Below are positions 19,984-64,000 of a stretch of 64,000 nt of DNA, in pieces. Numbering within the stretch: the stretch's first letter is position 1; every line of letters starts with the position of its first letter. The translations under genes and the position numbers were made by a program. The notes beneath the pieces are model-generated. The model ran no database searches. It was not told the origin of the DNA and was given only the letters and a program-made list of their open reading frames with translations. The DNA comes from Planctomycetota bacterium (GTDB lineage: Bacteria; Planctomycetota; UBA1135). Location: positions 3,434 to 67,433 of the forward strand of contig JASMMA010000005.1 in NCBI GenBank assembly GCA_030748415.1, in the 5' to 3' direction.

Positions 19984-20251
19984 CGCAATCTGCGCATTCT
20001 TTGCCAAGCGCTTTGGCATCTTTACAGCACTGAGCGGCTTGCTTTTCACCGCAACAGGGTTTGGTGCAATCGGAACCGCATTCGGCTTTGGCGGTGGCGT
20101 CGCAACTAGGCTTAGCGCATTCGGAACCGCATTCGGCTTTGGCGGTGGCGTCGCAACTAGGCTTAGCGCAATCGGAACCGCATTCGCCGGGTGTTGCACA
20201 GGCGAAAAAGGAAAGAGAAAGTGCCGCAAGGACAAGGGTGAGGTTTTTCAT
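19976..20251 (-). CDS. small exported cysteine-rich repeat protein (91 aa, 15 Cys), possible lipoprotein
   Basis: The signal peptide MKNLTLVLAALSLSFFAC is followed by three units of ECGS(D/E)C(A/T)KP(S/C)C.... The ATG lies 5 nt after the rnd stop. Competing ORFs in the track over this stretch lack any such features. Confidence 0.6.
   Translation of the reverse strand: MKNLTLVLAALSLSFFACATPGECGSDCAKPSCDATAKAECGSECAKPSCDATAKAECGSDCTKPCCGEKQAAQCCKDAKALGKECADCAK
20066..20188. repeat. 51-bp tandem repeat, about 2.4 copies, inside the Cys-rich ORF
   Basis: Units 20066-20116 and 20117-20167 differ at one base. A partial third unit spans 20168-20188. Confidence 0.9.
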
Positions 20252-27961: not shown

Positions 27962-28328
27962 CGATACCGAACCCGACCCTTTTTACCGAGAAAAAAAGAC
28001 CCTACTCGCAGGGGGCTCTCACGCCGCAGGCGCTCGTTTCTCAGAAGCTCCGCGAAATAGGATTGCCCTCGCGCCCCCACCTCCACCCCACACCCCCAAT
28101 CGGTGTTGGCGATATCGGGCGTTAACAGTTGGCTCTAAACAAACCGCCCCAATTCCTAGTGGCGGATTTGGTGGGTCACTTATTAGCTCGAGGGTCCGGT
28201 TGCGCGGATTTTGGCGCTATGCCGCGGGAGGCGGCTTAGTGCCACTGGAGCGCAACGGATTCCCTCGCGCATAAAAAAACAAACCCAACAAATACCATCA
28301 CAAACAAATCAACAATCACAAACAAATC
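27962..28328 (-). repeat. paralogous intergenic element, copy A (candidate sRNA gene, sense on minus strand)
   Basis: The reverse complement aligns with 39959-40274. The 38-nt block rc 28231-28268 matches at 35/38 positions. The 25-nt hairpin plus T7 (rc 27991-28015) is identical, and the 28 nt at 27962-27989 are identical. Confidence 0.85.
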
Positions 28329-34342: not shown

Positions 34343-37087
34343 CTACAGGTGATAAGCCGAATCGGCGGGCCGGACTGCGCGGGCGAAGTGGAGGGGGCGG
34401 CGAAGGCCGTTAGTTGGCTTGCACTCGCTTTGCTCTAACCACTCACGGAACACCTTCATAGACCGGCGTGTGTCCACTTCAATGTCACCATAGCAATCAC
34501 CCGAGATTGCTTTGGTTACGACTACTTTTTGGTGCCAGCAATGCATGCCGGATACGGGGTCGGGTTGAACAGGAAACGTAAGGTTTTGATGAACACCCCC
34601 CTCGGTCCACCAGATGCGGCTCGAGTCGGGATCCTCAGAAGAGAAGGGCGCAATGTCGGTCAGGCGCCGCATTTTCCAAATACCTGGTTCTGGATTGTCC
34701 ACCTGAACAGTGGGCGATGCCCATCGGTCTGTGCCTCCTTCGCCACTTTGAATTCTCCACCGACCCAAGTGATGCGAACAAGCCACAACCCCAGGGCGAA
34801 TGCCCTCTGTAACCCAAGCTTTATTCACAAAATACCCGATGCGTGTTGAAACTCGAACCAGGTCCCCAGATTCCACGCCAACCCGAGCGGCGTCGGTTGG
34901 GTTCATCCAAACGGGGTTCGTGTTCGACAGTTCGGCTAACCATTTTGAGTTTGCGGAACGCGTGTGAATCAGAGTTGGGATTCTGAATGTAGGCACCAAG
35001 GCCATCTCACCCGCTGTTTGATCCATATCACTAAATCGAATGTGGCTCGGCAAATACTTTGGGAGTGCATGCTGTTCCACTCCCCACTCTTTCATGGTTG
35101 GAGACCAAACCTCCAACTTTCGAGAGGGGGTGTTAAAGCCAGCAAGTCGCTTGCCGCAAATATCAATACCAGGTTTATCAGCAGAAACCTCTTTAAGGTG
35201 AGCCGCCACAGACCCATCGGGCTCCACTTCAAAGACCCCGTACTGCCGCATGTAATCCATCGGGCTCAAGCCCTCTTTTTCAGCTGCTTCGGGTAACCCG
35301 GGAACAGAGTTTTCAAAAATCCAACGGTAATACTCTTCAGAAGTGACGCGCTCACCTGGGCGATACGGGGATTCGAACCATTTTCGGATTCCAAGAGAGC
35401 CGTCCTCGTCAATCGCCCATGAAAGGGCAATCCAAAACTCATCCTCTTCCCAGACTTCTCCGGGATTGGCTTGCCAGGTCCACTCAATCTTTTCGCCATC
35501 GGCTTCGCGGGAAACTCGGAGAACCGGTTGTCTAAAACCAATCCACTTTCCAGCATGGGTTTCTTGACTCATGATGTCGTGCCGCTCTGAGGCCAGGCCC
35601 ATGGGTAGAACCCAGTCCGCATAGATCGCGGTTTCACTCCAAGTCGGAGTCAGTGCTACATGACATCCGACCAAAGATTCATCCGACAGTACCTCCATCC
35701 ATGCGCACCCATCTGGGTTGGTCCACACGGGGTTGTAAACACGGGTGAAATAAGTGTCGAGTTTTCCTCTACCATCCATCAGGAGGTGTGGAAGGAGGAA
35801 GCTTAATTCATGGTGAGAAAGTGGCCACTCTTTTGGGTAAAGGAGTTCATTCCAAACCGTTTGTGGCGGTGGCTTCACAAATGGAGCGGGAACAAACTTG
35901 TTGTCAGAGTGGAGAAAAGTTCCGCCTGGTGTTCCAACCGAACCGGTCAGTACAGTTAAGAACTGTAAACACCTTGCAACTTGCCAACCACCACGATTCC
36001 CAGATGCCGCGTTGCGCCAAACATGAGAAGCAAAGGCGCCGCGCGCTTTTCCGATTTCTTGTCCAACCGCAACTACAGCTGAGGCTTCAATTCCACATTC
36101 TTCAGCCGTTCTTTCTGGAGTCCATTCTTCAACGAGGCTCTTCAAGCTCTCCAGAAACCGTTCGAACGAAGGTGCCTCACCCGGGTATTCCGCGAGCATC
36201 CAATCTTCCCAATTAGTCCAGGTGCGTAAATATTCCTGATCTTCAAGGCCTTCTTTCAAAATCACGCGAGCAAAACCCAGCAATAAGGCTGCCTCCGAAC
36301 CCGGATGCGTTGCAAGCCAATAATCACTCATGGAGGCGGTATTGGAAAGCCGAACATCCACGGTCGCGATTTTCGCGCCGGACATTTTGGCTTCCATAAT
36401 TCTCTGTGCATGAGGATTGAAATAGTGGCCTGTTTCCAAATGCGCGCTCAAGAGCAAGATAAACTTCGCTCGAGCATGGTCAGGGGAAGGGCGGTCGCTA
36501 CCCGACCACAAGCTATAACCCAAACGAGCCGCGCCTGAACAAACATTGGTATGGCTGTTGTGGCCGTCCACACCCCATGCTTGAAGAACACGGTCCATAT
36601 AACCGTCTGCCCCAGGCCGACCGACATGGTACATCACTTCGGTTCGGCGGTTTTCTTGAAGCGCTTTTCGAATCCGTGGAGCGATTGCTGCAATCACATC
36701 ATCCCAAGTAGCTCGTTCAAACTTACCCTCCCCCCGCTTTCCAACTCGACGCATCGGGTAAAGGATTCGTTGTGGGTCTTGAATCTGATTTAGGGTCGCA
36801 GGCCCTTTTGCACAGTTTCGCCCGCGCGACCCGGGGTGGTAGGGGTTGCCTTCAAACTTCCGAACCTCGCCCGTTTCTTTATCAACATAGGAAATCAACC
36901 CACAGCCGGCCTCGCAGTTAAAGCAAATAGTTGGAACAATGCGGTAATGCTTTTCAACGCGCTTTGGCCATGCTTTTGAATCGAGCTCTACCCAATCATC
37001 CCACTTATCTTTCGGCGGGCAAGACTCGAGGGTCGTGGTTTGCCACTCTTCACCTGATGGCGCAACTTGGGAAAGGTCCATTTTCAT
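34343..37087 (-). CDS. molybdopterin (MopB superfamily) oxidoreductase catalytic subunit, no Tat signal
   Basis: The N-terminal 4Fe-4S motif is CFNCEAGCG...C. The protein is large, 915 aa from the ATG at 37087, which forms an ATGA overlap with the upstream stop. There is no twin-arginine motif. Confidence 0.9.
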   Translation of the reverse strand: MKMDLSQVAPSGEEWQTTTLESCPPKDKWDDWVELDSKAWPKRVEKHYRIVPTICFNCEAGCGLISYVDKETGEVRKFEGNPYHPGSRGRNCAKGPATLNQIQDPQRILYPMRRVGKRGEGKFERATWDDVIAAIAPRIRKALQENRRTEVMYHVGRPGADGYMDRVLQAWGVDGHNSHTNVCSGAARLGYSLWSGSDRPSPDHARAKFILLLSAHLETGHYFNPHAQRIMEAKMSGAKIATVDVRLSNTASMSDYWLATHPGSEAALLLGFARVILKEGLEDQEYLRTWTNWEDWMLAEYPGEAPSFERFLESLKSLVEEWTPERTAEECGIEASAVVAVGQEIGKARGAFASHVWRNAASGNRGGWQVARCLQFLTVLTGSVGTPGGTFLHSDNKFVPAPFVKPPPQTVWNELLYPKEWPLSHHELSFLLPHLLMDGRGKLDTYFTRVYNPVWTNPDGCAWMEVLSDESLVGCHVALTPTWSETAIYADWVLPMGLASERHDIMSQETHAGKWIGFRQPVLRVSREADGEKIEWTWQANPGEVWEEDEFWIALSWAIDEDGSLGIRKWFESPYRPGERVTSEEYYRWIFENSVPGLPEAAEKEGLSPMDYMRQYGVFEVEPDGSVAAHLKEVSADKPGIDICGKRLAGFNTPSRKLEVWSPTMKEWGVEQHALPKYLPSHIRFSDMDQTAGEMALVPTFRIPTLIHTRSANSKWLAELSNTNPVWMNPTDAARVGVESGDLVRVSTRIGYFVNKAWVTEGIRPGVVACSHHLGRWRIQSGEGGTDRWASPTVQVDNPEPGIWKMRRLTDIAPFSSEDPDSSRIWWTEGGVHQNLTFPVQPDPVSGMHCWHQKVVVTKAISGDCYGDIEVDTRRSMKVFREWLEQSECKPTNGLRRPLHFARAVRPADSAYHL

Positions 37088-38571
37088 GAGTTGGGTTCCT
37101 CTTGGCCTGCAAAAATCCATGCTTTTTCAAAGGGAAGCATCGAGAGAGCTGTAAGCGCAGCAACAACAGGGAACACATGGGTTTCCAATTCATTTCCTGT
37201 CGCCACCAAGCAACCCAACCCCGTTGCAAGAATCAAACCTAATACAAAAAGTAATGGGCCACTGCGACCTGCTAAGCGGCGGCGAGCGCGATCTGCGCTT
37301 GCGGTTTTTGTTTTTCCACGAATCTCATGATTCAAGAATGCGAGATTCAGAATCCCCAATAAGGCTAATACCTGACCAGCTAAGACTGAAGCGGTTACAC
37401 CCTCAAAAGCAAAGGCAAGAAGCAATCCCAGGAGAGAAGCACGGGCAATGAGGGCAGGGAATAAGCCATTCTCTAACCACAAGTCGCGGCCGCGACATTG
37501 AGAAAACAAAAATGCGGAATAACCCGATGTCATGACGGCAATTGGTAAAGCAAGCCACCGCAAAACTGAAACCAATTCAGTTAAGCCCGCCCATTGGCAG
37601 GCAAGCGATGCCACAGTCACCGCACCAAACATCGACAAAATCCAAGCTCCGCGAACGAGCCATGAAGCGGAATTGCCTCGTGTCAATAAGGAAAGCGCCC
37701 GCTCAGGTTTGCCAAGGTCTGCAATCAGCAAAGCGGCGGTGAGAGCAAGGGCCACAAGTGCTACCCACTCATGGATTCCACCCGCGGGCATTCCGAGATA
37801 TGCCAATAGGGGCGCAACCAACATCGCGCCGGCGGCAACATTTTTGGTGAACAAATATCCCCAAACATGCCAACCCCAAGGGGGCGCGTGGTCTGTGTCC
37901 AAAACAGTTTTGGGTTCACCCGGTTCAAATTGGGGAAGACCTTCAGGGATTCCTGGAGGGGGGAAGCGGCGGTCCGACCAGAGCCAGGAGTCGGGCTGAC
38001 TTGTGGCGCCAGGCTCTAAAGATGCCTCGAGGGCATCTACATACCAAACTCGGGGCCCTGTTCCTTTTTCTTCTCGCCGCCGTTGAACAGGTAAATCTAA
38101 AACTGTCTGGGAAATAGGGGATTGGGGGTCGTCTAAGTCTCCTGCGAGAATAGCCTGTTCAGGACAAATCACTGCGCATGCGGGTTGAAGCCCCACCTCG
38201 ACTCGGTGAGCGCAGAAATGGCATTTCTCAGCTACACCAGAGTCTGGGTTCAAGTAAAGCGCGTCGTATGGACAAGCTTGCATGCAAGATGCACAACCGA
38301 TACAGGCGCCTCGGTCTAAGTCCACAATGCCGTCGTCGCGCTTGCTGAGGGCGTGCACGGGGCAAATTTTCATACAGGGTGCATCGTCGCAATGATTGCA
38401 ACGCATCACGCTGAAGTGGCGGCGGGAGTCGGGAAACTCCCCCACTTCGACATACTTCACCCAAGTGCGGAAACTGCCCACCGGCACTTCATTTTCAGAT
38501 TTGCATACTACGGTGCAGGCGTGACAGCCAATGCACTTTCGCTGGTCAATGACAAATCCGTAGGCGGTCAT
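37084..38571 (-). CDS. fusion of four-cluster 4Fe-4S ferredoxin (PsrB/DmsB-like) and NrfD/PsrC-like membrane anchor
   Basis: The Cys clusters are CIGCHACTVVC, CNHCDDAPC, CIGCASCMQAC and CHFCAHR...C. About 300 aa of polytopic membrane domain follow. Confidence 0.85.
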   Translation of the reverse strand: MTAYGFVIDQRKCIGCHACTVVCKSENEVPVGSFRTWVKYVEVGEFPDSRRHFSVMRCNHCDDAPCMKICPVHALSKRDDGIVDLDRGACIGCASCMQACPYDALYLNPDSGVAEKCHFCAHRVEVGLQPACAVICPEQAILAGDLDDPQSPISQTVLDLPVQRRREEKGTGPRVWYVDALEASLEPGATSQPDSWLWSDRRFPPPGIPEGLPQFEPGEPKTVLDTDHAPPWGWHVWGYLFTKNVAAGAMLVAPLLAYLGMPAGGIHEWVALVALALTAALLIADLGKPERALSLLTRGNSASWLVRGAWILSMFGAVTVASLACQWAGLTELVSVLRWLALPIAVMTSGYSAFLFSQCRGRDLWLENGLFPALIARASLLGLLLAFAFEGVTASVLAGQVLALLGILNLAFLNHEIRGKTKTASADRARRRLAGRSGPLLFVLGLILATGLGCLVATGNELETHVFPVVAALTALSMLPFEKAWIFAGQEEPNS

Positions 38572-38603
38572 ACTCCGCTCAGTTTAAGGTCGCGGCAAGA
38601 ATC

Positions 38604-38769
38604 AGACACTGACACAATCCGCTGGGTCATTTTTTTCTTAATCCCTTTGCTATTAATCACTTGGGATCCAATTAAGTTGAGACCTAGCCCTGTCTCAATT
38701 CGAGTACCCAAACCTCTTCCATAAATGGCTTTGCGGAAAGGGGTGACCCAGCGGATTGTGTCAGTGTCT
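38604..38769. repeat. hairpin element E1: perfect 26-bp terminal inverted repeats, 114-bp spacer
   Basis: 38604-38629 (AGACACTGACACAATCCGCTGGGTCA) is the exact reverse complement of 38744-38769. Confidence 0.95.
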
Positions 38770-39761
38770 TAGTGGGCCACGAAGCCCAAAAGTTCGACCT
38801 GGCCATTGGTGTAATGATCCTTCTGCTCCTCATCCGAACAATAGTCGGTCGAGAGATACTTTTTGTTGCTATCAGCAAAAACCGTGGCCACATCTCCCCC
38901 CGTCTGGAGGGCAATCTGAACTGCGCCAACGAAATTCGCGCCGGACGAAATTCCCACCGCTAAGCCTAGATCTGCCGCAAGCTTTTGAGCCATCAAAATG
39001 GCGTCCCCATCCCAGACATCCACAATGTCGCTGAGCCAGTCTAGTTCCACAATCGAAGGCACGAATTCATCGGAAATACCCTGAATCCGGTGCTTTCCAA
39101 CCTTGCAGCCGGTGCTCATCGTGGGGGAGTTGGCCGGCTCAAGAGGGTGGCTGGGGAAGTCCTCTCCCAATTTCTCGCGTAAAAACCGCCCGACACCCAT
39201 GACCGTTCCGCCCGTGCCAACACCTGCAACGAAGGCGGTAGGAATTGCCTCAGCCGCCTGCATTTGGGACAAAATTTCTGGACCGGTCCCTCGGTAGTGG
39301 GCCTCGATGTTGGCCTCATTGTCAAATTGGTGAGGCAAGAAGACCCCAGGCGTTTCAGCAGCAAAGGAGTCCGCCTTTTGAATGCTTCCCAAAAAACCAC
39401 CCTCTTCCTTGCTCACGGGTATCACAGCAGCGCCCAGGCTCTGGATTACCTGCACCCGCTCCATGCTCATCCAGTCTGGCATATAAATCCGCACCGAGTG
39501 CCCCAAGGCTCGTCCAACAGCAGCGAAAGAGATTCCCGTGTTGCCAGATGTGGCTTCTACTAAGGTGTCCCCCGCCCTGACTGCACCCTTTGCATAAGCA
39601 TCCCGCATGATGTGCAGGGCCATCCGGTCCTTAATACTCCCAGTAAAGTTGATAGATTCCTGTTTCGCCCAAATAGAGAACTCCTTCCCCTCTACGCGGC
39701 ACCGAATCTGAAGGATTGGAGTGTTCCCAATCAATTTTTCAAGGGCGGCAATGTTGTTCAT
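38769..39761 (-). CDS. cysK: cysteine synthase (PLP-dependent, CysK/CysM family)
   Basis: It has GNTP, NFTGSIKDR (the PLP lysine) and TSGNTGISFA motifs. Confidence 0.9.
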   Translation of the reverse strand: MNNIAALEKLIGNTPILQIRCRVEGKEFSIWAKQESINFTGSIKDRMALHIMRDAYAKGAVRAGDTLVEATSGNTGISFAAVGRALGHSVRIYMPDWMSMERVQVIQSLGAAVIPVSKEEGGFLGSIQKADSFAAETPGVFLPHQFDNEANIEAHYRGTGPEILSQMQAAEAIPTAFVAGVGTGGTVMGVGRFLREKLGEDFPSHPLEPANSPTMSTGCKVGKHRIQGISDEFVPSIVELDWLSDIVDVWDGDAILMAQKLAADLGLAVGISSGANFVGAVQIALQTGGDVATVFADSNKKYLSTDYCSDEEQKDHYTNGQVELLGFVAH

Positions 39762-39798: not shown

Positions 39799-39830
39799 AA
39801 AAAAAGGAGTCACTCCTAAGAGCAACTCCG
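39799..39830 (-). terminator. putative terminator downstream of tRNA-Leu
   Basis: On the minus strand, GGAGT...ACTCC hairpin options are followed by T7 (A-run 39799-39805 on the plus strand). Confidence 0.45.
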
Positions 39831-39836
39831 ATGTTT

Positions 39837-39925
39837 TGGTGCCGGGAACAGGGGTCGAACCTGCACTGAGTATTATCCCAACATGGCCCTCAACCATGCG
39901 CGTCTGCCAATTCCGCCATCCCGGC
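39837..39925 (-). tRNA. tRNA-Leu (anticodon GAG), 89 nt with encoded CCA
   Basis: I folded it by hand. The acceptor is GCCGGGA/TCCCGGC. The anticodon stem is CATGG/CCATG with loop TTGAGGG. It has a long variable arm and a GGTTCGACCCC T-arm. Confidence 0.9.
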
Positions 39926-39958: not shown

Positions 39959-40274
39959 GATTTGTTTGTGATGAGATTTGTTGGGTGTGTTTGGTTTTCT
40001 GTGCGAGGAGATCCGTTGCGCTCCAGTGGCACTAGGCCGCATCCGGCGGCTTTGCGGCAAAATCCCCACCTCGGGCGAGTAAGTGTGACCCATAACGACC
40101 AATATCGCCAATACAGGTTTGATTGTGGGGAGGAGATTGCGGCCCGAGTTTATCTGGCGGAGCCGAAATGAGATTTGCCAGGGGAGGCCACATACCAGGC
40201 AAGGAATCCGAACGGGAGGACCCCCTGCGAGTAGGGTCTTTTTTTATCGGTAAAAAGGGTCGGGTTCGGTATCG
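39959..40274 (+). repeat. paralogous intergenic element, copy B (candidate sRNA gene, sense on plus strand)
   Basis: It aligns with rc 27962-28328. The conserved 38-nt block is 40003-40040. The hairpin plus T7 is 40219-40245. The last 28 nt overlap the 3' end of the convergent 706-aa gene. Confidence 0.85.
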
Positions 40275-48934: not shown

Positions 48935-49375
48935 TTACCAGCGAAACCAAAGTCGGCGCCGGCGGCGGTGCCGGGCCTTGGAATTGGCCAAACCGGTGGT
49001 ATCGAGGTTGTGGGTTGCCTTTGTGGACTCGCCCGCTTTTTGCATAAGTGCCTTCCAGGCTTGGCCGTGGGGGGGAACTTTTGGGCCAAATAGGCGACGA
49101 ACTACCAGGTGGGCAGCTTCATGGATGAGGACATGCTCGACCTGTTCAGGGTGGCGGGCAAGTAGGCGAAGGTTCAACTCCAGAATCATGTCGTCGAGGA
49201 ATGCACGGCCCACTGTTGTACGCAGGCGGGGGTTCCAGCGAACTTCGATGACAGCTCGCAAATCTTCGACATCCCAGAGCTGGAGGACTTCGTCCAGGCG
49301 AGCCCGAAGCCGCTCCTCCGGCCAATCGGCAAGGACCAACTGGACACTGACACAATCGGCTGGGTCACCTTTCAT
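48935..49375 (-). CDS. SprT-like zinc metallopeptidase-fold protein
   Basis: It has the HEAAHLVV (HExxH) motif in a SprT-like context. The start is uncertain, because the first ~12 codons are encoded by the inverted-repeat arm of element E2. Confidence 0.65.
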   Translation of the reverse strand: MKGDPADCVSVQLVLADWPEERLRARLDEVLQLWDVEDLRAVIEVRWNPRLRTTVGRAFLDDMILELNLRLLARHPEQVEHVLIHEAAHLVVRRLFGPKVPPHGQAWKALMQKAGESTKATHNLDTTGLANSKARHRRRRRLWFRW

Positions 49376-49513
49376 TCCAAGCCTAGGTTTTATATGACTT
49401 TAGGAAGGAAAAAGGGGGCAGGCCTAGCCCCTGGACTTTTTTCTTCCCTAGGTCCTTTGCCTGAATGAACTTATCTAAGGTGATGACCCAGCCGATTGTG
49501 TCAGTGTCCAGTT
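49338..49513. repeat. hairpin element E2: perfect 30-bp terminal inverted repeats, 116-bp spacer
   Basis: 49338-49367 (AACTGGACACTGACACAATCGGCTGGGTCA) is the exact reverse complement of 49484-49513. The arms share 25 of 26 core positions with E1. Confidence 0.95.
49409..49431 (-). terminator. intrinsic terminator inside E2 spacer (for rsmD)
   Basis: The GGGGC/GCCCC stem has a 7-nt AGGCCTA loop. On the minus strand it is followed by CTTTTT, and the plus strand also has a T-run 5 nt after the stem. Confidence 0.5.
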
Positions 49514-49558
49514 GCTTCTTTGAGTCGGGTTCTTTTTGCACGGTATTTTGGGTCGGGT

Positions 49559-50119
49559 TCAGTAATGCCACCAATAAAGGGAGGTGGTGCCGTAGTTGCG
49601 TTGGACGAGGCCGGGCAGGTTGTCCATTTCGTTTGAGTTGAGGATGCCGCGGGGGGTGTGGGCGACGGAGCAGCCGCCATGGTTGAGGCGGCGAGAGAGA
49701 TTGCAAAATAATTCCCACACCTCAGCCCTTCGGGGGCCCTTGAAATCTTTATAGGGAGGGTCAAAAAAAACAATGTCGGGGTTCTCCACAGCTGCTTCGC
49801 TTTTGAGAAAACTGTGGGCGTCTATGCGCAAGGTTTGAATCCGCTGCTCATAACCCAATAAATCTGCAGTTTCCCGAAGTTGGCGAATTGCTCGCGGATG
49901 GCCTTCCACCGCAACAACTTCACTCGCGCCACGGGAGAGAGTTTCGAAACCCAAAATCCCTGACCCCGCATAGATATCCCAAACACGGGCCCCAGCCAAG
50001 ATTGGCCTCATGTGATCTAAGACAGCCATGCGCGCCCGCTCCACTAAGGGGCGGGTGGCTTTGACATCAGGTACGGGAAGCTTTCTCCCGCGATGTTCGC
50101 CGGCTGTGATGCGGAGCAT
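49559..50119 (-). CDS. rsmD: 16S rRNA (guanine966-N2)-methyltransferase
   Basis: It starts [14 protein letters not shown] and has [12 protein letters not shown] and FFDPPY motifs. I chose the ATG at 50119. Confidence 0.85.
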
Positions 50120-50137
50120 ATGCGTAGAATACGCGCG

Positions 50138-50869
50138 ATGCCTCGACTTCATGTCAACATTGACCATGTGGCCACTCTCCGACAAGCGCGAAGAGAGTCT
50201 CAGCCCGACCCAGTTGCTGCCGCAGTTCTGTGTGAGCTGGCCGGCGCCAACGGAATTACCGTTCATCTTCGTGAGGACCGCCGGCACATTCAGGACCGGG
50301 ATTTGCGGGTTTTGAAGGAAACTGTGAAGACAACTCTCAATATGGAGCTTGCCCTCACCGAGGAGATGATTGGGATTGCCCTTGATGTCCTCCCGGATGA
50401 AGTTTGCATCGTTCCGGAAAAGCGGGAAGAGCTTACAACCGAAGGTGGACTGGATGCCGCCGCTTGTTTGGCAGATTTGGAGCGGGAAGTCCCCCGCCTG
50501 CGCGAAGCAGGGATCGCCGTAAGCCTATTTGTGGATCCTGAGCCCAGCGCAATTGAGGCTGCTGCAAAGTGTGGCGCTGATTTTGTTGAGCTCCATACGG
50601 GTTGCTATGCCAACGCAAGTGGTGTTGAAAAAGAAAATGAACTTAAGCGTTTAGATACCTCCGCACGCTACGCACACGAGTTTGGCCTTCGAGTAAATGC
50701 AGGACATGGTCTGGACTATGACAATGTTCAAGCAGTCGCTGCGCTTCCATTCCTTGAAGAGTTGAATATTGGCCATGCCATTATTTCCCGCGCCGTTTTG
50801 ATTGGCCTAGATTCAGCTGTGCGTGAGATGCAAGACCGAATCTTGTCCGCCGACACTTCTGAGGAATGA
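50138..50869 (+). CDS. pdxJ: pyridoxine 5'-phosphate synthase
   Basis: It has [24 protein letters not shown] and NAGHGL motifs. Confidence 0.95.
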
Positions 50870-63857: not shown

Positions 63858-64000
63858 CGTAGGGGGGTCTATCTAGCTAAATCCTATCAGAGATTGGAGT
63901 AACGGTGTTTATCGACGGTATTTTGGGTAGTCCTGCTTCCCGAAAACCTGGACTTGTTTCGAAAAAACGCCACAAGTCTTTATGGTTTCTAAAGATAGAG

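Follow-up and report, generated by a model that had tools for sequence, protein, structure and literature searches.

A hairpin repeat with perfect inverted ends at two gene junctions of an uncultured Planctomycetota bacterium, probably a lineage-specific mobile element

Two copies of a short hairpin repeat, here called E1 and E2, are found in a stretch of 64,000 nucleotides from an uncultured Planctomycetota bacterium (the whole of this stretch is referred to below as the window). They probably represent a lineage-specific, non-autonomous mobile hairpin repeat, in other words a MITE in the broad sense, and we would put the probability of this reading at roughly 0.7. The repeating unit consists of identical inverted 25-nt ends around a spacer that is fixed in length (114-116 nt) and almost free in sequence, with CCTAGCCC at its centre. 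The copies lie at unrelated gene junctions and, from comparison with relatives, are derived insertions. The element is most likely selfish mobile DNA and not a conserved regulatory site. The features concerned are the following.

37084..38571, minus strand: Fe-S/NrfD fusion gene, first gene of a molybdopterin oxidoreductase operon; downstream neighbour of E1
38604..38629: E1 arm adjoining the Fe-S/NrfD gene, 26 nt; exact reverse complement of 38744-38769
38630..38743: E1 spacer, 114 nt; 41% GC (window 52%)
38744..38769: E1 arm adjoining cysK, ending on base 3 of the cysK TAA stop
38769..39761, minus strand: gene for a cysK-like PLP enzyme; upstream neighbour of E1
48935..49375, minus strand: SprT-like metalloprotease gene; first 12 codons (MKGDPADCVSVQ) encoded by E2
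49337..49367: E2 arm adjoining the SprT-like gene; 31-nt perfect inverted repeat, in which 49343-49367 is the 25-nt core common with E1
49368..49483: E2 spacer, 116 nt; 45% GC; quasi-palindromic
49484..49514: E2 arm adjoining the RsmD-like gene; 31-nt perfect inverted repeat, core 49484-49508
49559..50287, minus strand: RsmD-like methyltransferase gene; upstream neighbour of E2

The arms of E1 (AGACACTGACACAATCCGCTGGGTCA at 38604-38629 and its exact reverse complement at 38744-38769) enclose a spacer of 114 nt, just as the initial annotation had described them. That annotation also noted that the arm recurs in a second element, at 49338-49513. The recurrence is confirmed with slightly wider limits: the inverted repeat of E2 is perfect over 31 nt (49337-49367 / 49484-49514) and 95% over 37 nt (49331-49367 / 49484-49520), with its core at 49343-49367 / 49484-49508 around a spacer of 116 nt. 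The lengths of the elements are 166 bp for E1 and 178 bp for E2. The window contains four copies of a 25-nt core, GACACTGACACAATCSGCTGGGTCA (at 38605, at 38744 on the minus strand, at 49343, and at 49484 on the minus strand), which was found in 0 of 100 dinucleotide-preserving shuffles of the window, even with 3 mismatches allowed.

The differences between the two elements are mirrored within each of them. Both arms of E1 have C as their central base, and both arms of E2 have G. This had been reported as the sole difference, which is not quite so, since the base just outside GACAC also differs, again in mirrored fashion (A...T in E1, G...C in E2). E2 carries in addition six extra mirrored bases beyond the arm common to E1 and E2. 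The five known outer flanks, which include that of a third arm described below, are CACTAA, GAATCA, CAACTG (twice) and CAATAA; they give a loose consensus CAAYNR, so the arm ends may extend to about 31 nt. Direct repeats of 2-9 nt were looked for on either side of both elements, and no target-site duplication is present with any choice of boundary, the immediate flanks being TCA/TTA for E1 and CTG/CAG for E2.

Both elements are crossed by chance ORFs only. They are predicted to fold into strong hairpins in comparison with shuffled sequences (z = -6.5 for E1 and -11 for E2), with very stable predicted stems of 26-31 bp. A single arm is not self-complementary: it folds with only -1 to -2.6 kcal/mol, and between 11 and 86 of 200 shuffles fold equally well. 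Direct reading of the arm finds neither a GTAG nor a CGTC tetranucleotide on either strand.

The spacers are lower in GC content (41-45%) than the window (52%). It had been noted that they are nearly equal in length (114 and 116 nt) yet share little sequence, and this holds: a local alignment of the E1 and E2 spacers is no better than that of shuffles, while a global alignment is weakly better (z about 4). Two motifs had been proposed as common to both spacers. One of them, CCTAGCCC, lies at an equal offset in the two spacers, about 52-54 nt from the arm, and therefore forms a positionally conserved centre of 8 nt. The other, the TTTTTTCTT...CCTTTGC stretch, begins at offset 0 in E1 and at about 69 in E2, and its position is not conserved. 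In E1 the centre of the spacer contains a small hairpin (GAGAC at 38679-38683 and GTCTC at 38692-38696, with the loop CTAGCCCT), and no promoter-like or terminator-like site was found in this spacer. The centre of the E2 spacer (49414-49432) is a GC hairpin preceded by an A tract and followed by a T tract, and is predicted to match the intrinsic-terminator pattern on both strands. A sigma-70-like promoter is absent from the E1 spacer and from the E2 spacer alike. Consensus folding with RNAalifold, on n=2 sequences only, gave interiors that differ between the two relative orientations of the spacers.

An ORF of 20 codons, MTQRIVSVSDSCRDLKLSGV, is present at 38568-38630 on the minus strand. Its ATG is formed at the inner edge of the downstream arm of E1, and it ends in a TGA that overlaps the ATG of the Fe-S gene (ATGA). 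This overlap could couple its translation with that of the Fe-S gene, or may well be chance (probability roughly 0.1).

Each element is found between co-directional genes on the minus strand, in a window whose gene content is of ordinary chromosomal type (PriA, GroEL/ES, glutamine synthetase and PdxJ/PdxA are examples). The placement of E1 is as originally described: its outermost base, 38769, also serves as the final base of the cysK TAA, and the ATG of the Fe-S gene (38571-38569, minus strand) is 32 nt beyond the other arm. At E2 the neighbouring gene begins within the element. The annotated SprT-like protein starts MKGDPADCVSVQLVLADWPEE, with its ATG at 49375-49373 on the minus strand, 6 nt into the E2 spacer; the arm encodes codons 4-11. 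No transposase or recombinase was found among the genes of the window, in agreement with the initial annotation, which had seen neither a transposase nor a target-site duplication. There is also no Y1/HUH transposase in the window gene lists, and no full-length insertion sequence with the same arms in the window or its flanks.

A sister species is the closest relative on record, with a protein identity of 84% for the Fe-S protein and 86% for SprT; the exact Fe-S protein is not on record. The homologues carry the source name Planctomycetota bacterium. In the sister species the stop of the RsmD-like gene overlaps the start of the SprT gene (ATGA), and SprT begins MSEPEQEVPEQETQSLLSDWPED. By comparison the window has a net excess of about 160 nt at this junction, the RsmD-like gene ends early, and the N-terminus of SprT is unrelated. 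A contig from an outgroup has compact junctions and no element here, and five further SprT homologues have ordinary, variable N-termini that do not contain the arm-encoded peptide. These comparisons show that E2 broke the overlap of RsmD and SprT and replaced the N-terminus of SprT; the element now supplies the annotated ATG, in frame, together with 12 codons.

At the E1 site of the sister species cysK is deleted except for its last ~45 nt, and the leader of the Fe-S gene is kept (contig L010, 8360-8440). In place of the TAA and the element of the window there are 18 nt (TTGGACAGAGGCAAATCG), which loosely resemble the start of the arm (about 12/19) and are either a remnant or chance. An outgroup, a more distant relative, has an intergenic region of 123 nt at this site that does not contain the element. 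A cysK-proximal tRNA-Leu (GAG) gene is present in the window at 39837-39925 on the minus strand, just upstream of cysK, with a strong terminator hairpin at 39806-39829. The tRNA gene and the terminator are both conserved in the sister species, where the remnant of cysK lies between the tRNA-Leu terminator and the Fe-S gene; a Logan contig of the strain ends inside the tRNA gene.

The sites of E1 and E2 are thus empty in the sister species and in two more distant relatives, and no arm-like sequence is present in about 45 kb of sister-species DNA. Since both sites are empty in the sister and in the outgroups, E1 and E2 are derived insertions in this lineage. Insertion took place after the split from the nearest relatives, at boundaries whose exact position is not readable at 84-86% protein identity. 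It is only through the outgroups, with their partly different synteny, that loss in the sister species instead of gain in this one is excluded. The initial annotation had stated that absence from close relatives would argue against a conserved regulatory role. By that standard such a role fails, the sites being empty in close relatives, and we regard it as unlikely. The changes in gene boundaries brought about by the element are side effects and not its purpose.

Searches of larger collections were carried out for further copies, and Rfam was searched, as had been proposed originally. A 21-nt segment of the arm (20 specified bases) gave 0 matches in 185,579 GTDB species genomes, JGI metagenome contigs and IMG/VR. 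The pattern of paired outer ends matched the GTDB genomes only at three TGACAC microsatellites (in Segatella and a Spongiibacteraceae MAG), which are chance matches, and the pattern of paired inner ends gave no match in the JGI metagenomes. With blastn nothing was found in the PLSDB plasmids, and the GenBank phages gave one chance match of 24 nt. Known copies were not returned by these searches, and the source samples are therefore evidently missing from the scanned collections; either the family is narrowly distributed, or the lineage is missing from them. No part of the window matches an Rfam family at gathering thresholds. Below threshold there is only noise from eukaryotic miRNA and snoRNA hairpins, the best being MIR2619, with 22.8 bits against a gathering score of 113. 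Over 458 kb of sequence, nhmmer with an E1/E2 profile returned only E1, E2 and the third-arm loci. In about 78 kb of this organism E1 and E2 are the only complete copies, and the third arm stands alone.

Identical elements are found in other assemblies of this strain, namely JGI 3300035204 and 3300035250, the NCBI MAG GCA_030747345.1 and several Logan assemblies. Every contig of this species has E1 and E2 in identical form, and no strain lacking an element was found among them. The orientation of the spacers is constant in the JGI, Logan and NCBI assemblies for E1 and in the JGI and NCBI assemblies for E2, with the qualification that consensus assemblies would hide a minority orientation. A JGI contig of 93.7 kb that covers most of the window ends near position 1640, and another starts at 1787, in an ORF of 814 aa; from this split at about 1640-1790, the assembly behind the window is more contiguous than those on record.

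The third arm, of the G variant, lies about 3.4 kb to the left of position 1 of the window and is found in JGI and Logan contigs (L005, 5149-5173, and the end of L004). The stop codon TGA of a methyltransferase gene is inside it (GACAC-TGA-CAC). On the JGI contig no partner arm is present within the 158 nt that follow, and the sequence after the arm is unrelated to the spacers of E1 and E2. Logan contigs are built with k=31. They run through E1, which has an inverted repeat of 26 nt, and at E2 a contig (L033) breaks 1 nt short of the inner end of the arm, because the 31-nt inverted repeat of E2 is itself as long as k. The break at E2 was considered as evidence of copy number and rejected, since E2 alone explains it; of the breaks, that at the third arm alone carries information. 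Here a Logan contig stops inside the arm, at the mirror-image position of the break at E2, which suggests that at least 30 nt, including the CAATAA flank, are repeated elsewhere in the genome.

We also considered that the third arm might be the end of a full-length insertion sequence, as there is an ORF (MSFRPPFCPHKTCPSHKKVPFLWR...) 86 nt after it. This proposal is unsupported: the ORF has no homologue, no match in Pfam or NCBIfam and no tblastn match in plasmids, and it overlaps a terminator-like palindrome.

It is worth adding that the region contains other repeats. A second, unrelated family of about 315-380 nt is found at 39959-40274 and 27962-28310, the two copies being 78% identical overall and 86-94% identical at their ends. 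Its first ~45 nt (CGATACCGAACCCGACCCTTTTTACCGAKAAAAAAAGACCCTACTC) recur beside E2 (49519-49564) and, more weakly, at 63894-63928. This family supplies the last 9 codons and the stop of a gene of 706 aa, as well as the TGA of the RsmD-like gene. The tRNA-Leu locus of the sister species lacks it. There are also three tandem copies of a 51-nt unit at 20050-20202, the second and third being 88% and 67% identical to the first.

Among known systems of short prokaryotic repeats, RUP, Nezha and MITEAba12 are classical MITEs derived from DDE insertion sequences. MITEs in general are defined as non-coding sequences of less than 500 bp with terminal inverted repeats of about 4-30 bp (PMC10969869, PMC3733652). 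E1 and E2 fit in length (166 and 178 bp), in their lack of coding capacity and in their terminal inverted repeats, which are perfect over 26 and 31 nt; a target-site duplication, which is also expected, is not present. They further resemble classical MITEs in being richer in AT than their surroundings, in having terminal inverted repeats of 25-31 bp, in their location next to genes and in their presence or absence at orthologous sites. They differ in that direct repeats are absent even though the arms are undecayed, that no parent insertion sequence is known, and that the two copies have essentially unrelated interiors. The flanking direct repeats of MITEs are described as fading with age (reviewed in PMC10969869 / PMC3733652).

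The Correia elements of Neisseria, also called CREE or NEMIS, have a TA duplication and inverted repeats that are cleaved by RNase III (PMC2649163, PMC10969869). They are like the present elements in several respects: a size of about 100-200 bp, inverted ends of about 26 bp, a location at gene boundaries, co-transcription with neighbours, a long stem that is a possible RNase III substrate, and the ability to alter neighbouring coding sequence. They are set apart by description, since E1 and E2 come from another phylum and have no TA duplication and no promoter-like sites. In addition, Correia copies share a core, whereas here only the ends and the 8-nt central motif CCTAGCCC are common to the copies. 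The initial suggestion of a Correia/MITE-like element can thus be kept in part: a small non-coding repeat of mobile type fits best, and it is not a Correia element, given the missing TA duplication and the different phylum.

The architecture most resembles that of REPINs, in which two REP sequences form a hairpin that is mobilised by RAYT tyrosine transposases; the spacer is less conserved than the ends, its length is kept, and singlets are presumed to be remnants (PMC3116915). Shared features are the conserved inverted ends, the less conserved hairpin spacer of fixed length, the compensatory changes, the extragenic location and the absence of a target-site duplication, to which the lone third arm may be added as a counterpart of the singlets. 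However, E1 and E2 do not belong to the REPINs or to REP sequences. The arm is not a REP sequence, being neither self-complementary nor provided with a GTAG or CGTC tag (PMC3733652), and with a spacer of 114-116 nt the distance from centre to centre is about 140 nt, as against 71 or 110 bp.

Repeats with terminal inverted repeats that are not REP sequences have also been described, as singles and dimers, linked to TIRYT tyrosine transposases in moderately abundant 'TIRtrons', and the planctomycete Rhodopirellula baltica has many tyrosine transposase genes with flanking repeats (PMC3733652). The likeness is that the inverted units are non-REP and occur here as one single and two dimers; the difference is that no TIRYT gene flanked by arms is seen. 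The inner end of the arm, TGGGTCA(C/T), is one mismatch from the published motif GGGGWSAS (PMC3733652), which may be chance.

E1 and E2 should be co-transcribed with their neighbours, and the transcript is predicted to fold into a stem of 26-31 bp. As in Correia elements (PMC10969869), RNase III could act on such stems in read-through RNA. This raises the alternative, listed in the initial annotation, that the element is an RNA hairpin selected by the host, in which the stem would be an RNase III site, an insulator or a terminator that separates upstream from downstream expression. Such a function would suit the location between co-directional genes, which implies transcription of the element if the gene pairs are operons, and also the very stable predicted stems, whose pairing is preserved by two-sided changes; the centre of E2 matches the intrinsic-terminator pattern on the sense strand, and Correia inverted repeats are indeed cleaved by RNase III (PMC10969869, PMC2649163). 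It is nevertheless improbable. Both sites are empty in the sister species and the outgroups, and E2 disrupted a translationally coupled pair of genes and the N-terminus of a protein, which is unlike a refined regulatory site. Furthermore a terminator-like site is absent from E1, no conserved interior structure is evident from the two copies, and there is no Rfam family. With the element absent from relatives, processing or insulation is unlikely to be the reason for its existence, and is plausible only as a consequence of its transcription.

Two further explanations place the function in the DNA, and we give each of them very little weight. The arms might be sites for an invertase encoded elsewhere, which would flip the spacer of ~115 bp and so switch the downstream gene. 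Identical inverted repeats at several loci would be expected of such an inverton, as would a segment of constant length that immediately precedes genes (32 nt from the Fe-S gene, and at the start of SprT), and Correia elements are reported to invert (PMC10969869). However, neither spacer contains a sigma-70-like promoter to be switched, no recombinase is encoded in the window, the element is absent in relatives, and a single spacer orientation is found in all the independent assemblies, although a consensus would hide a minority orientation. The arms might alternatively be paired binding sites, about 140 bp apart, for a regulator or nucleoid protein that loops or wraps the spacer. This was the remaining regulatory reading of the initial annotation, and is equally disfavoured. 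It would account for arms conserved to the base around a spacer that keeps only its length, and for the conserved CCTAGCCC at the centre. Against it, the flanking genes are unrelated in function (cysK with a molybdoenzyme; SprT with an rRNA methyltransferase; another methyltransferase), relatives with these genes lack the sites, and E2 destroys the N-terminus of a gene; mirrored base changes are not expected for two independent sites, and a lone arm exists.

The reading as a mobile repeat is not free of difficulties. Counting against it are the lack of a duplication, of a transposase in the window and of a parent element, the third arm that has no partner within 158 nt, and the small number of copies in about 78 kb. 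The perfect conservation of the arms could instead reflect selection at the level of the host.

On the basis of the observations above we hypothesise that an enzyme encoded elsewhere in the genome would recognise the 25-nt ends and move or copy the element, and that copying or correction would act on the folded single-stranded hairpin, in the way suggested for REPINs. What points to a route through hairpin copying, and away from a classical staggered-cut DDE insertion, is the absence of a duplication despite flawless arms, taken together with the mirrored changes in the arms and with a spacer whose length is kept and whose sequence is not. A hairpin or HUH route on the one hand, and a DDE transposase with an absent or lost duplication on the other, carry roughly equal weight. 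A more specific version is that the elements are REPIN-like replicative hairpins with non-REP ends, a doublet class of the Planctomycetota that would be copied by foldback through a candidate TIRYT-like HUH enzyme or another enzyme. This version would explain the flawless co-varying arms, the fixed length of the spacer and the lack of target duplication; we consider it rather doubtful.

Taken as a mobile hairpin repeat, the family is new and of a known kind, and its arms have remodelled gene boundaries. To our knowledge there are hardly any descriptions of small hairpin repeats from Planctomycetota. In genome annotation, N- and C-termini such as the start of SprT and the stop of the methyltransferase are thus to be read as derived from a repeat. 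If the element proves to be an ordinary MITE, its value would be limited to a catalogue entry and a strain marker. Its perfect, co-varying ends without target duplication are a hint that mobilisation by hairpin copying may extend beyond REP sequences and RAYT.
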